Under the pieces are notes generated by a model that saw nothing but the letters and a program-made list of their open reading frames with translations, was not told the origin of the DNA and ran no database searches. From positions 11,007-75,006 of the forward strand of contig JBHPMF010000001.1 of NCBI GenBank assembly GCA_042563375.1: a DNA stretch of 64,000 bases, given 5' to 3'. The translations under genes and the position numbers were made by a program. This document shows, piece by piece, positions 34,391 to 44,540 of this stretch. Source of the DNA: Elusimicrobiota bacterium (lineage in GTDB: Bacteria > Elusimicrobiota > Elusimicrobia > JACQPE01). Each line of letters opens with the position of its first letter. The stretch's first letter is position 1.

Positions 34391-34527
34391 GCAGGAGAAA
34401 GTATACAGTAGACAGCATACAGGGGAGGAGATGGTACGTTTCTAATTAAAAGAGGAATTCTTTTTTCTTATATGCTGCCTGCTTTCTTCTGTGTGCTGCA
34501 TGCTGTCTACTGTATGCTTTCTTCTTA
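34391..34527. repeat. Heptamer-periodic hairpin (AGCATAC/AGTAGAC units, family 3) ending exactly at the recG stop codon
   Basis: Left arm agcaggagaaagtatacagtagacagcatacagggga. Right arm tgctgcctgctttcttctgtgtgctgcatgctgtctactgtatgctttcttcttatga. Confidence 0.7.
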
Positions 34528-36666
34528 TGATATATCGCTTATCTCAAAATCCTTGCCGAATCTTTCTCGTATCAGCGATTTTAGCAATGGAAAGGAATTA
34601 AGATTCGCGCTTTGATCCGTCACCTTTGCGCTTACGCTCTGAGCATGTGCGATAAGCTCAGTGTCTTTCTGGAAATTAGTGTATTTGAATTCGAATTCTC
34701 CGTGCTGGCTGATCCCAAGAAGTTCTCCGGGGCCTCTGAGCTCGAGATCGAGTTTACCTATGTCAAAGCCGTCCTTGGCTTCAATAAAGCGCAGGAGTCT
34801 TTCCCATGCCTGGCTTGGGGCCGCAGAGCTTTTAATGAACTCCTGTGATGGGAACAAGAGGCAGATGCCGGGCAGGTCTCCCCTGCCGACCCTGCCTCGA
34901 AGTTGATGCAGCGTGGCAAGACCGAAACGCTCAGCTGCCAGTATTATTATGATATTGGCTCCTGGAACATCCACTCCGACTTCAATGATGGTCGTTGTGA
35001 TAAGGATATCAAGGTCTCTGCTCCTGAAGCGACTAAGCACTGTTTCCTTGTCTGCTGCGCTCATTCTTCCGTGTAAGTATCCTATCTTGTTCTCGGGAAA
35101 TATCGCCTCGACCCTTTTAGTTTCTTTGATGATATTATGAGCTATGTTATCGTCCTCTATGGCCGGTACGGTTATATAGGCTTGGCCGCCATCATCAAGC
35201 TTTTGCCTGAGGATATCCCAGAGATCATCTTCGTTGCTTATCAATTTGGCCGGGGATATTGTTCTTCCGGGAGGCAGTTCTTCCATAGTAGTCATATCAA
35301 GGTCTCCGTAAAGAGCAAGGGCGAGGGTGCGCGGTATGGGCGTGGCTGAGAGTACGAGCGAATCAGGCACCATGTTCGCTTTATCTCTTAGGCACCATCT
35401 TTGCTTTACCCCGAATCTATGCTGTTCATCAATTATCACAAGGGCCAGGCTTTTAAACAGCACATTTTCCTGAAGGATTGCGTGTGTGCCTACTATCACT
35501 TGCAACTGGCCTGATGATATCCGGTTCAGGATATCGTCTTTTATACTTGGTTTTATATCGCTGTTGAGCGCGGCAAGGCTGATATTAAGGGGTTCGAGAT
35601 ATGCCTTAAGCGTAGCGAAATGCTGAAAAACAAGCACTTCAGTCGGAGCGATAAAAGCTACCTGATGCCCGGAACTGACAGCCCTTATTATCGCGGCTAT
35701 TGCTACCACGGTTTTGCCGCTTCCCACTTCTCCTTGAAGGAGCCTGTTCATCGGGTGCGGCTGCTGCAGATCACTTTGTATCTCTTGTATGGCCGTGCTT
35801 TGGCTTTTTGTGAGAGTGAAAGGCAGACTGTCAAAAAAACTTCTCAAATTCTCGTTCTGAGCGCAGCCTATGTATTTTTGCGGCTTATTGATCAGTTCAA
35901 GCTGCTTTTTCCTTGAGTTAAGAGCTGTAGAGAATATCAAGAGTTCGTAAAACGCATGGCTTTTTCTCGCTAATTCAAGCTCGGACTCATTCTCCGGGAA
36001 ATGGATCTTTTGATAAGCAGAGTTCCAGGCGAATAAATGCTCAGGCATCTCAAAACCACGATCCAGGTTGCCAGCATCCTCAAATATACTTTTAGGCGCC
36101 ATATCCAGCCAGACTTCCATCGCTTTCCAGCGCAAGTTCCTGAGTTCTTTTTGAGAGATGCCTTCTGTTAAGGGGTAGACAGGTACGATCCTGTTGAAAT
36201 GAGGCGAGGCGGCTTTGTTCTCATCGAACACCTCATAATCCTCGACCATAATATCGCGGCCAAAGAACGTTTTTGTGGCTTTCCCATATATGAACAATAA
36301 TGGTTTTGTATCCAGTAATTGCCTCAAGCTCTTAAAGACGTCATACGCGAAGGATGTTTTCCTTATCCATAAAAGGTCAAGATTCCCCCCATCGCCTGTT
36401 TTTGCCTGGACCTTCAGGAATGTGAGGCGGCCATCGCGCGATGTATTCGCGGAAACTGATCCCACTTTGCATGAGAACGCGTATTTATGGCCTTCCTGCA
36501 TCGATGCTTGCTGCATGCTGACGGCCTGGATGCGCCGGTCTTCCCAGACCCTTGGAGTCTCAAGTATCAGGTCTTCCACAGCGCAGAGGTTGAGATGCTT
36601 TTCTAGAATAGCGGCTTTTTTCGGGCCTATGCCTTTGAAGTAGCGGATGGGAGTGGTTAGATCCAT
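34525..36666 (-). CDS. recG: ATP-dependent DNA helicase RecG
   Basis: Wedge domain plus superfamily-2 helicase motifs (GDVGSGKT, DEQHRFG, LSATPIPRT, QLRGRVGR). Confidence 0.9.
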   Translation of the reverse strand: MDLTTPIRYFKGIGPKKAAILEKHLNLCAVEDLILETPRVWEDRRIQAVSMQQASMQEGHKYAFSCKVGSVSANTSRDGRLTFLKVQAKTGDGGNLDLLWIRKTSFAYDVFKSLRQLLDTKPLLFIYGKATKTFFGRDIMVEDYEVFDENKAASPHFNRIVPVYPLTEGISQKELRNLRWKAMEVWLDMAPKSIFEDAGNLDRGFEMPEHLFAWNSAYQKIHFPENESELELARKSHAFYELLIFSTALNSRKKQLELINKPQKYIGCAQNENLRSFFDSLPFTLTKSQSTAIQEIQSDLQQPHPMNRLLQGEVGSGKTVVAIAAIIRAVSSGHQVAFIAPTEVLVFQHFATLKAYLEPLNISLAALNSDIKPSIKDDILNRISSGQLQVIVGTHAILQENVLFKSLALVIIDEQHRFGVKQRWCLRDKANMVPDSLVLSATPIPRTLALALYGDLDMTTMEELPPGRTISPAKLISNEDDLWDILRQKLDDGGQAYITVPAIEDDNIAHNIIKETKRVEAIFPENKIGYLHGRMSAADKETVLSRFRSRDLDILITTTIIEVGVDVPGANIIIILAAERFGLATLHQLRGRVGRGDLPGICLLFPSQEFIKSSAAPSQAWERLLRFIEAKDGFDIGKLDLELRGPGELLGISQHGEFEFKYTNFQKDTELIAHAQSVSAKVTDQSANLNSFPLLKSLIRERFGKDFEISDIS

Positions 36667-36830
36667 GATAAAGAAATGATGAATGATGAATGATGAATGA
36701 TGAAATAGGAGAAAGCATATAGGAAAGAAATGATGAATGATGAGCTAAGAATGAAGAAAAAAATAGATTTTTCCCTTATTTTAAATCCCCCCTCTTTTCT
36801 TTTCTTTGTTTCATCATTCATCATTCTATT
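36661..36830. promoter_or_regulatory. (AATGATG)n tandem repeats arranged as an inverted pair in the divergent recG-rpmB promoter region
   Basis: gaaatgatgaatgatgaatgatgaatgatgaaatagg and gaaatgatgaatgatgag on one side. tcatcattcatcattc on the other (36811-36826). Confidence 0.6.
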
Positions 36831-36852
36831 GATTTCGTATAATATATGCCTT

Positions 36853-37029
36853 ATGGCAAATAAATGTAGCGTCTGCGGAAGAGGGCCCAGAGCCGGAAAG
36901 ACAGTGAGCCATTCTAATAGAGCCACGAACCGCTTTTTTCATCCGAATATCGTTAAGAAGCGTATTCATGAGGGTTCATCAAAGAGAGTGCGTATCTGTA
37001 CATCCTGTCTGAAAAGGACAAACAAATAA
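36853..37029 (+). CDS. rpmB: 50S ribosomal protein L28. True start is the ATG at 36853; the listed ORF 36730-37029 carries a spurious N-terminal extension.
   Basis: MANKCSVCGRGPRAGKTVSHSNRATNRFFHPN... matches the L28 family, including the C4 zinc-ribbon Cys pairs. Confidence 0.85.
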   Translation: MANKCSVCGRGPRAGKTVSHSNRATNRFFHPNIVKKRIHEGSSKRVRICTSCLKRTNK

Positions 37030-43378: not shown

Positions 43379-43498
43379 TTAAATCGTTTTTTTGCCTAGA
43401 ATTTCACGTATGGATACAAGTGTACTTATAAGGGCTGAGGGCTGACGGCTGAAAATAAAGAAATCCTGCGTATTCAACATCCAGCATTTATGCTTATA

Positions 43499-44386
43499 TT
43501 ATACTTTATCACCCGAAACTCCCACAATGGTGATTTTCCCTGAATTTGCCAGGTTGATCATGTCTTGATGTTCCATCATGAGGGTCCATTTTGCCTCGCA
43601 GGCAAGGCAGGTAGCTTGAGATTCCAGCATTGACTGAATCGTGCTCGGTCCTATTATCGGCAGGTCGTATCGCGCGTCCTGATCAGGGCGTGCGACTTTT
43701 ACGATCGTAATGCCTTCTCCGGGCTTAAGGTCTTTTTTCTTGAAAAATTTATTAAAAATATTGCCTGCTCTTTTTATGCATTCATCTGTCCCCTCCATCG
43801 CCTCCACGGCAATGGCAGCGCCGCCTGACATGCATACTGTGAGTCCTATATCCAGGGATGAGAGTTTTTTGGCGATGATAAAACCTTGTCTTACCTGCGA
43901 TAGCTCGTGCGAGCCGGCTTGCCTTTTAGTCAGAGTTTTTTCCGGGACAAGATCGTGCTCCAAAAAAGAATATGAAGGGAGAGTGGTTATCCCCTCCTCT
44001 TTGAACATATCGATGAGAGCATTGAGAATGCTTTTTGTCGTCTTGTTCTTGAGGCTCATGACGAATTTAAGGGTTTTGATATCTGCGAGCGCGCGTATTT
44101 TGTCAAGGGGTTTGAGGGCTTCTTCGTGACTTATGGTTCCCGCGAATATTGCGTATGCTGCTTTTTCTTTTTTTAAAAAAGAAAGCATTTTTGTCAGTTC
44201 TCCTACGTTGATCCATATGCAGGATTGGCAGAATTCCTCGATCTTTTTTGATGTGTAACCATTGAAAGCCACTATGGCAATGTGCGCTCCCTGCTTGTGC
44301 GCATTTTGCGCGATTGACAGCGGAAAAGTACCGCTTCCGGCGATAATCGCGATTGTTTTGCTCAGATCAGGACTACTTATTTTCAT
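43499..44386 (-). CDS. lpxI: UDP-2,3-diacylglucosamine pyrophosphatase LpxI-like (DUF1009)
   Basis: IAIIAGSGTFPL N-terminal motif characteristic of LpxI, with size and position in the lpx cluster consistent. No lpxH is present in the window. Confidence 0.6.
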   Translation of the reverse strand: MKISSPDLSKTIAIIAGSGTFPLSIAQNAHKQGAHIAIVAFNGYTSKKIEEFCQSCIWINVGELTKMLSFLKKEKAAYAIFAGTISHEEALKPLDKIRALADIKTLKFVMSLKNKTTKSILNALIDMFKEEGITTLPSYSFLEHDLVPEKTLTKRQAGSHELSQVRQGFIIAKKLSSLDIGLTVCMSGGAAIAVEAMEGTDECIKRAGNIFNKFFKKKDLKPGEGITIVKVARPDQDARYDLPIIGPSTIQSMLESQATCLACEAKWTLMMEHQDMINLANSGKITIVGVSGDKV

Positions 44387-44434
44387 CTATGTGATTTTCG
44401 CATTTTTGAAAGAATTGCTCAACCAGAGAAAATA

Positions 44435-44540
44435 GCAGGACAGCATGCAGTAGACAGTATACAGGGAAGATAAATAATTCTTAATCCAAGGAAATCCTTT
44501 TCTTTCCTGTATGCTGCCTACTGTCTGCTGTATGCTTTTA
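44435..44540. repeat. Family 3 heptamer hairpin (AGCATGC/AGTAGAC/AGTATAC units) between lpxI and lpxA, ending 2 nt before the lpxA stop
   Basis: agcaggacagcatgcagtagacagtatacagggaag / ctttcctgtatgctgcctactgtctgctgtatgctttta. Confidence 0.7.

Follow-up and report, generated by a model that had tools for sequence, protein, structure and literature searches.

A 64-kb window of DNA (64,000 nucleotides of contig JBHPMF010000001.1, assembly GCA_042563375.1) from an uncultured Elusimicrobiota bacterium carries two hairpins of 105 to 135 bases that adjoin the stop codons of recG and lpxA and whose arms are built from 7-base units. The LpxA protein encoded in the window is 100% identical to an Elusimicrobiota LpxA held at NCBI. 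Locus 1 is situated between the recG stop codon (TAA, 34525 to 34527) and the start, at 34357, of a cytidylyltransferase-like gene, probably coaD (33854 to 34357, − strand), which begins 35 nt from the hairpin. The recG gene (34525 to 36666, − strand) encodes RecG wedge, DEAD, and Helicase_C domains. Locus 2 is situated between the lpxA stop codon (TGA, 44543 to 44545) and the start, at 44386, of lpxI (43499 to 44386, − strand), which begins 47 nt from the hairpin; the lpxA product (44543 to 45373, − strand) has hexapeptide repeats and an Acetyltransf_11 domain.

Each locus (34393 to 34525 and 44434 to 44536) pairs an arm of purine-rich CAGYAKR heptamers with its inverted counterpart, the arms being 30- to 40-nt arrays of four to eight degenerate heptamers with about 45% G+C. 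The arms of locus 1, at 34393 to 34422 and 34496 to 34525, are 30 nt long, 90% complementary, and separated by 73 nt. Its purine-rich arm, AGGAGAAAGTATACAGTAGACAGCATACAG, reads as the units CAGGAGA, AAGTATA, CAGTAGA, CAGCATA, and CAG and runs on into GGGGAGGAG. The loop (34423 to 34470), which contains GGAATTCTTTTTTCTT, is followed by extra CTG-phased pyrimidine-rich units (34471 to 34495) to which the left arm has no full counterpart, the right array being the longer of the two, and then by the pyrimidine-rich arm proper, CTGCATGCTGTCTACTGTATGCTTTCTTCT, whose last base is on the + strand the first base of the recG stop codon. In locus 2, nested arms were found at 44440 to 44480 and 44491 to 44531 (41 nt, 78% complementary) and at 44442 to 44464 and 44514 to 44536 (23 nt, 83%), and the fold pairs 44434 to 44536. 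Here, the purine-rich arm (44434 to 44470) reads as AGCAGGA, CAGCATG, CAGTAGA, CAGTATA, and CAGGGAA, and the pyrimidine-rich arm (44497 to 44536) as TTTCCTG, TATGCTG, CCTACTG, TCTGCTG, and TATGCT; the loop between them (44471 to 44496) is partly paired in the minimum-energy fold. Tandem Repeats Finder reported periods of 7, 14, and 21 at the loci, bearing out the 7-nt periodicity proposed in a first-pass annotation of this DNA.

The two loci are closely related to one another. The sequence CAGTAGACAGYATACAGGG is common to both left arms without mismatch and to both right arms with two or three mismatches, giving four matches in place of the 0.02 expected; the longer 26-mer core quoted in the first-pass annotation is exact in locus 1 only, locus 2 carrying the variant GCATGCAGTAGACAGTATACAGGGAA. 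Three consecutive CAGYAKR units occur 11 times (0.01 expected), always within these two loci. Over arms and loop, the loci align at 75% column identity; they have 19 identical bases in common, and the loop motif GGAAWTYYTTTTYYTT is present in both loops with no mismatch. The 75% identity and the common loop motif make the loci two diverged copies of one repeat. As a signal shared between repeat families, the same loop motif was rejected, given that nine occurrences in the whole window against 4.1 expected are not significant.

That the arms would form stable structures was likewise borne out. Locus 1 folds at −61.3 kcal/mol on the + strand (z = −7.7) and at −44.3 kcal/mol on the − strand (z = −6.5), and locus 2 at −52.2 kcal/mol (z = −7.8) and −44.4 kcal/mol (z = −6.3), respectively; at neither locus did any of 200 shuffles match the real energies. 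Both hairpins have stems of 26 to 38 bp with the purine-rich arm on the 5′ side. Across the whole window, Rfam returned no match at the gathering threshold, and identity with a known RNA family was rejected, since the subthreshold microRNA and RNase P look-alikes (E values of 0.03 to 0.06) are at chance level. Neither the element nor a synthetic CAG array had a meaningful match in a plasmid collection, and a literature search with the array sequences gave no relevant match. A consensus terminator and promoter scan called none of the hairpins, the loops of which exceed the limit of the scan. T-rich tails are present at locus 2 on both strands; locus 1 has just a U/C-rich stem base.

The window contains at least 11 hairpins made of 7- or 8-nt units, belonging to at least five unit families. 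Five of them, at 9736 to 9889, 20406 to 20490, 41002 to 41175, 54568 to 54675, and 57003 to 57125, have ACGTGAG units; in the second of these, the 33-nt arms are 97% complementary and the TGA stop codon of the upstream glycosyltransferase gene lies inside an arm. A GTTAGAG/CTTCTAA hairpin (33793 to 33882) lies between convergent genes, both of whose stop codons are in or at its arms, and the 3′ end of the coaD-like gene overlaps it. Two AATGATG hairpins are found at 36670 to 36826 and at about 47148 to 47245, and a hairpin of octamer units at 29390 to 29476. Lone arrays occupy other spacers (21439 to 21546, 26599 to 26640, 43431 to 43452, and 61979 to 62015), and altogether most spacers between housekeeping genes hold hairpins of such build, as they do in a second Elusimicrobiota genome. 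When arrays were counted by self-similarity, 11 had a spacing of 7 nt and two a spacing of 8 nt, with none at 4 to 6 or 9 to 12 nt; at a looser threshold, 17 arrays were detected in the 64 kb, compared with a single one in 187 kb of control sequence from unrelated LpxA-bearing genomes. Head-to-tail 7-nt copies thus exceed chance, as in simple-sequence tandem repeats.

The comparison of hairpins across the window upheld the earlier proposal that the CAG hairpins (family 3 of that annotation) and the ACGTGAG hairpins (its family 1) are of the same build although their units are unrelated. A further proposal was that a common mechanism generates or uses such hairpins irrespective of sequence. The 11 arrays at spacing 7 agree with a process that works in a 7-nt register, and a single mechanism generating or using them is plausible but unproven; generation independent of sequence did not hold up. 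Within each family, the copies share loops as well as arms, as is evident from the five ACGTGAG copies, and are therefore copies of a dispersed repeat family rather than products of a sequence-blind process. The same evidence bears on a purely local origin, in which slippage in place and fold-back template switching would have produced each hairpin with neither dispersal nor function. Arrays do arise in many contexts, including coding DNA, and orthologous junctions in related genomes carry different arrays, as such an origin would have it. Independent origin would not, however, yield the loops shared among five ACGTGAG copies or the 19 identical bases, the loop motif, and the 75% identity of the CAG copies, and we give this explanation little credence.

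The position of the hairpins relative to coding sequence is similarly regular. The right arm had been described as ending at the stop codon of the upstream gene, which is exact for recG, where the TAA starts at the last base of the arm (0 nt); the lpxA TGA starts 7 nt beyond the arm. When the proposed rule was extended to all families in the window, an upstream stop codon was found within the outer arm or no more than 7 nt from it in 8 of the 11 hairpins, with the next start codon 5 to 47 nt past the other arm (35 to 47 nt for the CAG loci). For ACGTGAG hairpins, a unit usually supplies the stop through its TGA, and the base of the stem is 5 to 8 nt from the next start. Exceptions are the hairpins at 36670 to 36826, between the divergent starts of recG and rpmB, and at 29390 to 29476, between a pilin-like gene and the divergent pilB. 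The rule is real but has ordinary explanations: on a simple reading, the elements fill the dispensable spacer, i.e., all that the translation start of the next gene does not need. In addition, the purine-rich units often carry TGA or TAG and therefore truncate reading frames that enter the hairpin. An enrichment of stop codons in the purine arms (2.58 versus 1.85 expected) was set aside, being modest in size and raised artificially by the TAG that the search pattern contains.

Based on these findings, we assign a probability of about one-half to the reading that each locus is a copy of a dispersed, noncoding palindromic repeat similar to repetitive extragenic palindromic (REP) elements and miniature inverted-repeat transposable elements (MITEs), with arms evolving by 7-nt slippage. 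Replication slippage would create, lengthen, and reshuffle the arrays, the 7-nt register being favored, and complementarity of the arms would be maintained by hairpin-templated correction, i.e., quasipalindrome template switching, and/or by selection for pairing. Template-switch mutagenesis at quasipalindromes is an established process. The copies would have spread through some copying step, and selection would confine them to the harmless interval past a stop codon and ahead of the next ribosome-binding site; the repeats themselves may be selfish or near-neutral. The hairpins would be cotranscribed with recG-coaD and lpxA-lpxI, and by analogy with REP, ERIC, and Correia elements the transcribed hairpin would probably act as a barrier to 3′ exonucleases or as a leaky terminator. 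Its stem would probably also be a substrate for the RNase III of this organism; an RNase III with a double-stranded-RNA-binding domain is encoded at 4883 to 5614. Such a barrier or cleavage would uncouple the decay of neighboring cistrons.

Other genomes and metagenome contigs show how variable these arrays are. In GCA_016928195.1, a second Elusimicrobiota genome whose LpxA is 56% identical, hairpins of 70 to 140 nt built from ACGCGAAT-like and other 7- or 8-nt units occur at almost every junction of the syntenic lpx cluster (bamA-ompH-lpxD-lpxC-lpxA...lpxI-lpxB-msbA), starting 4 to 12 nt after stop codons and ending ahead of the Shine-Dalgarno sequence. A third relative (L142) has overlapping genes, no spacers, and no hairpins; presence of the layout in the one and its absence from the other point to a lineage-specific invasion. 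In metagenomes, a scan for CAGTAGACAGYATRCAG gave at least 120 loci. Among the matches listed, about 70% are preceded by an AG-phased unit, 68 of 129 belong to arrays with four or more units, at least 24 have a CTG-phased partner within 300 nt, and the contigs with CAG-type arrays span 40 to 69% G+C, with 115 different heptamer units in 228 arrays. One of these contigs, L073, belongs to the Bacteroidota (Cytophagales) and carries at 2281 to 3188 a CAG-type hairpin in which the stem continues inward (GTCCACTCGTCGCTGTG/CACAGCGACGAGCGGAC) and a CAGTAGA unit provides the TAG stop codon of yyaL. At the yyaL-priA junction, four Cytophagales relatives have, respectively, no array, a different heptamer array, a short array, and the CAG hairpin (L073). 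The related contigs L053 and L056 differ by whole units between flanks that are about 90% identical; the pairs L070/L091 and L033/L057 show point changes only. We count the whole-unit differences, the variable yyaL-priA junction, and arrays in coding linkers (see below) as support for slippage.

The metagenome set also calls for caution. Five matches of high G+C (L034, L060, L088, L126, and L136; 57 to 68% G+C) are in-frame coding sequence, so the set is heterogeneous. In these contigs, GTAGACAGTAGACAGCATACAGCATACAGGG reads as VDSRQHTAYR within a conserved C-terminal segment, ...TIVRGVL..-..AELLDISGRKV..PGxNDV..LAPGVYFV, that gives a weak match to the type IX secretion system (T9SS) domain Por_Secre_tail (E value of 6e-5, just under the cutoff). 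A positional statistic from the set was downgraded accordingly: of 75 arrays, 36 have an open reading frame (ORF) of at least 80 codons ending at the 5′ edge, and 4 have one ending at the opposite edge. Specifically, ORF positions taken from stop to stop are unreliable here because TAG is present on the purine strand and stop codons are absent from the pyrimidine strand, and because of the five coding matches. In L030 (about 12,750 to 12,830) and L111 (about 4,060 to 4,090), lone CAG arrays end in CAGGG and are followed by GTAG and a G+C-rich stem-loop, e.g., GTAGCGTCGGGTCTTGTGCCCGACG. This combination of an array with a canonical GTAG-tagged REP suggests that heptamer arrays and REPs colocate at gene 3′ ends.

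Several of these observations could also be accommodated by a classical MITE, the arrays of which would be terminal or subterminal binding repeats for a transposase supplied in trans. The copies are dispersed, have a common loop, and keep a fixed polarity of units relative to the center; one short dispersed block recurs in L070, L091, and L062 with different flanks; the L073 hairpin encloses in its loop of about 850 nt a YoeB-like toxin and, on the opposite strand, a small antitoxin-like ORF, reminiscent of cargo; and insertion sequences in Geobacter metallireducens lie at a fixed distance from some comparable pairs of arrays (PMC2700814). Arm length and unit number vary between copies, however, and the arms lack the fixed ends of MITE terminal inverted repeats. 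Moreover, aligned copies revealed neither sharp termini nor target duplications, no transposase is among the window ORFs, and lone and in-frame coding arrays exist. We therefore regard a classical MITE as improbable.

A regularity of a different kind concerns the order of the arms. On either strand, the purine-rich arm is the 5′ one in 10 of the 11 window hairpins and in all 28 asymmetric hairpins examined elsewhere (38 of 39 in total). This order makes both outer arms rich in stop codons for incoming reading frames, and it has the geometry of A-tract/stem/U-tract bidirectional terminators. It would be required, to give a U/C-rich 3′ stem half, if the hairpins were selected cis-acting RNAs, namely, bidirectional intrinsic terminators or attenuators or stop-to-start structures for translational coupling. 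In line with such a role, locus 2 is flanked by AGAGAAAATAGC and GCTTTTATG, the hairpin at 20406 to 20490 is followed by TTTTT on the − strand, ACGTGAG stem bases lie at the previous stop codon and 5 to 8 nt from the next start, and equivalent lpx junctions in two distant Elusimicrobiota genomes carry hairpins of unrelated sequence. On the other hand, efficient termination would be harmful inside the essential operons (lpxA-lpxI and lpxB-msbA), many hairpins have no U-tract, two lie between divergent starts, and the relative with overlapping genes does without hairpins altogether. Covariation is weak as well, and better folding is not consistently a property of the sense strand. A selected RNA device thus appears unlikely.

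The sole hairpin with the pyrimidine arm first is the octamer hairpin at 29390 to 29476, GTGCTCC(N)/CAGGAGC(A), in the divergent spacer upstream of pilB. Related octamer themes form lone arrays, ACAGGAGC and ACGCAATA, each in 4.4 copies, at 26599 to 26640 and 59864 to 59899, respectively.

The strands also differ in folding. In 9 of the 11 window hairpins, the fold is better on the + strand than on the − strand (for instance, −40.8 versus −24.7 at 33793 to 33882), because the arm mismatches are G·U pairs on the + strand (65 versus 28 G·U pairs). As 48 of the 51 long ORFs in the window, housekeeping genes, lie on the − strand, the mRNA version is the weaker hairpin. Fourfold degenerate sites show an excess of G and T on the + strand, and on other contigs the better-folding strand does not track gene orientation. 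The G·U asymmetry is therefore probably a mutational or compositional skew, a conclusion for which only the three + strand genes serve as control, and its use as evidence of antisense RNA or RNA selection was rejected owing to this skew and to the missing link with gene direction elsewhere.

Returning to the dispersed REP/MITE-like repeat, several points weigh against it. Slippage and template switching by themselves explain neither the purine-first order nor the better folding of the + strand. The CAG family has only two copies in the window, and the copy alignments showed no defined element ends or target-site duplications. A scan of the 51 window ORFs identified no transposase or REP-associated tyrosine transposase (RAYT). 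In the ACGTGAG family, 3 of 35 pairs are compensatory (covariation term, +1.48), a signal too weak to serve as proof of selected pairing, and this line of evidence was dropped. Transcription through the hairpins and termination or cleavage at them are postulated by analogy with better-known elements. Finally, the LpxA search yielded no relative close enough for an empty-site comparison in the genome and species collection or the protein database, where the next LpxA has 57% identity; the best in the genome collection has at most 50%.

For the dispersed-repeat reading, the working model is provided by the Correia elements of Neisseria and the enterobacterial ERIC/IRU elements, which are MITEs forming imperfect intergenic palindromes of 100 to 170 bp that are cotranscribed with genes and fold within the mRNA. 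RNase III cleaves the hairpins of Correia elements, and the stability of an mRNA is changed by the ERIC copies it contains. These elements differ from the present hairpins in having defined terminal inverted repeats and target duplications and in lacking an internal 7-nt periodicity. The REP/BIME/REPIN group, with its GTAG- and CGTC-tagged members, offers the other half of the comparison: such elements are intergenic and multicopy, with several families per genome, lie mostly 3′ of genes, between codirectional or convergent ORFs, and form inverted dimers that give larger hairpins, some copies being intragenic (PMC3733652, PMC3333891). REPs often supply the stop codon of the gene upstream (PMC3733652). 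The window hairpins are likewise multicopy, extragenic, mostly 3′ of genes, and arranged as inverted dimers. Whereas REPs are G+C-rich palindromes of 20 to 40 bp, however, the repeated unit here is the entire 105- to 135-bp hairpin, with arms that are 30- to 40-nt heptamer arrays. REPs also bear an unpaired GTAG or CGTC tag, with a RAYT for the GTAG types, while the present hairpins appear to have no terminal tag and the window has no RAYT; the GTAG inside CAGTAGA units and the CGTC on the pyrimidine strand of ACGTGAG are paired internal bases.

The nearest structural precedent is the set of paired tandem hepta- and octanucleotide sites in the genome of G. metallireducens, where 24, 21, and 8 pairs of inverted tandem arrays of 8-, 8/9-, and 7-nt units, respectively, were described in intergenic regions (Aklujkar et al. 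2009, PMC2700814). As judged from the published description, these classes 1 to 3 and the window hairpins share paired inverted intergenic arrays of several classes, with three to five tandem 7- to 9-nt units on opposite strands at variable distance, e.g., between proB and proA. They differ in unit sequence and phylum, and the description, given as annotation only, is silent on stop position and arm order. Its authors proposed, without a test, that the pairs bind global regulators (IHF/HU) (PMC2700814). Extended to the window, this proposal would make the inverted 7-bp arrays double-stranded DNA sites bound cooperatively by a nucleoid-associated or ribbon-helix-helix protein. The convergent and fixed orientation of the units would suit an oriented binding protein, and three heptamers make 21 bp, or two helical turns, 21 being the best-scoring period in locus 1. 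Nevertheless, with at least five unrelated units in 64 kb, either many specific proteins would be needed or none, most hairpins lie between codirectional genes right after stop codons and not in promoter regions, and no candidate protein was identified. DNA sites of this kind are accordingly a doubtful explanation, to which we attach a low probability.

Heptad arrays bound by protein do exist: the omega repressor of inc18 plasmids binds contiguous 7-bp units in direct or inverted orientation. That system comprises one unit, one repressor, and plasmid promoters, in contrast to the unrelated units found genome-wide after stop codons here. The cyanobacterial STRR repeats and the direct arrays of TAACTGA scattered among Beggiatoaceae, Cyanobacteria, and Bacteroidetes resemble the window arrays in being short, heptameric, mostly intergenic, and oriented relative to genes, with stop codons in the forward units (PMC4679880). 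They comprise 169 direct sets and one inverted set, mostly just upstream of start codons and with one unit per system (PMC4679880), whereas those described here follow stop codons as inverted pairs and use many different units. Heptanucleotides are the commonest class of long simple-sequence repeats in most bacterial genomes, which has been attributed to polymerase slippage (relayed in PMC4679880).

A bolder view would unite the Geobacter, Elusimicrobiota, and Bacteroidota arrays in a distinct cross-phylum class of inverted degenerate-heptamer arrays, obligatorily purine-first and directly after stop codons, that are produced or read by one 7-nt-register machinery and act as two-way insulators stopping ribosomes and RNA polymerase between genes. 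The machinery would then be a property of polymerase or repair or a protein that, in the manner of cold-shock proteins, binds single strands with one unit for every 7 nt. We consider this distinctly unlikely.

Arrays of the same kind were also seen within genes. In lpxB (− strand), a perfect 4.6-copy heptamer array at 41768 to 41799, GATTTGA on the + strand, is in frame and encodes NLKSQISNLKS in the variable linker that precedes the LPGSR motif. The orthologous LpxB linker of a distant Elusimicrobiota genome (L140, 15952 to 15998) is heptamer periodic as well, with TCGTCTC-type units that encode SLVSRPSSLGS; thus, such arrays are able to persist in coding sequence or to arise there again. An ORF for a GFO/ADH-type oxidoreductase (15193 to 17409, − strand) contains at 16213 to 16250 a CTGTCTC array with periods 7 and 21, which reads GDREQETGDS.

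The window holds an unrelated second repeat family, found at 4826 to 4885, 49825 to 49885, and 56269 to 56329 (three exact-core copies; 0 expected), with related copies in 11817 to 12019. It forms a double hairpin with 19-bp stems, ATCCCGAAnCAAGTTCGGGAT followed by ATGAATATAAnnCGTCTCC, 4 nt, and GGGGAnGnnTTATATTCAT, and bears a CGTC motif that resembles those of CGTC-tagged REPs. On the right, the element overlaps the stop codon (TGA within TCAT) of the − strand gene upstream, which is rnc, clpC, or an ilvE-like gene. The − strand genes of the window include ETF, rnc, fabG, plsX, type IV pilus genes, the coaD-like gene, recG, relA/spoT, msbA, lpxB, lpxI, lpxA, lpxC, ompH, bamA, clpC, lolCD, lysS, and prfB. 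The last of these, encoding release factor 2, has a programmed +1 frameshift site, AGGAGGCTTCTTTGAC, at 60963 to 60978 (− strand), upstream of a 297-residue PCRF/RF-1 ORF (59907 to 60800), and the 249-nt "spacer" at 60801 to 61049 therefore belongs to prfB, as its 5′ part, rather than being intergenic.

Taken together, the hairpins at recG and lpxA are a real, nonrandom feature and exemplify a variant of intergenic palindromic repeats that is widespread but has gone essentially undescribed. This class is also present in several other uncultured bacteria and has barely been described before, having so far been recorded just as unexplained annotation features in Geobacter. Predictions of operons, terminators, and small RNAs in these lineages must account for such hairpins. 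The unique enrichment of the 7-nt register and the near-absolute purine-first order on both strands lead to testable hypotheses on mRNA processing, slippage, and repair templated by hairpins. A dedicated reader or writer of such units, should one exist, would add a new component to the organization of bacterial genomes.

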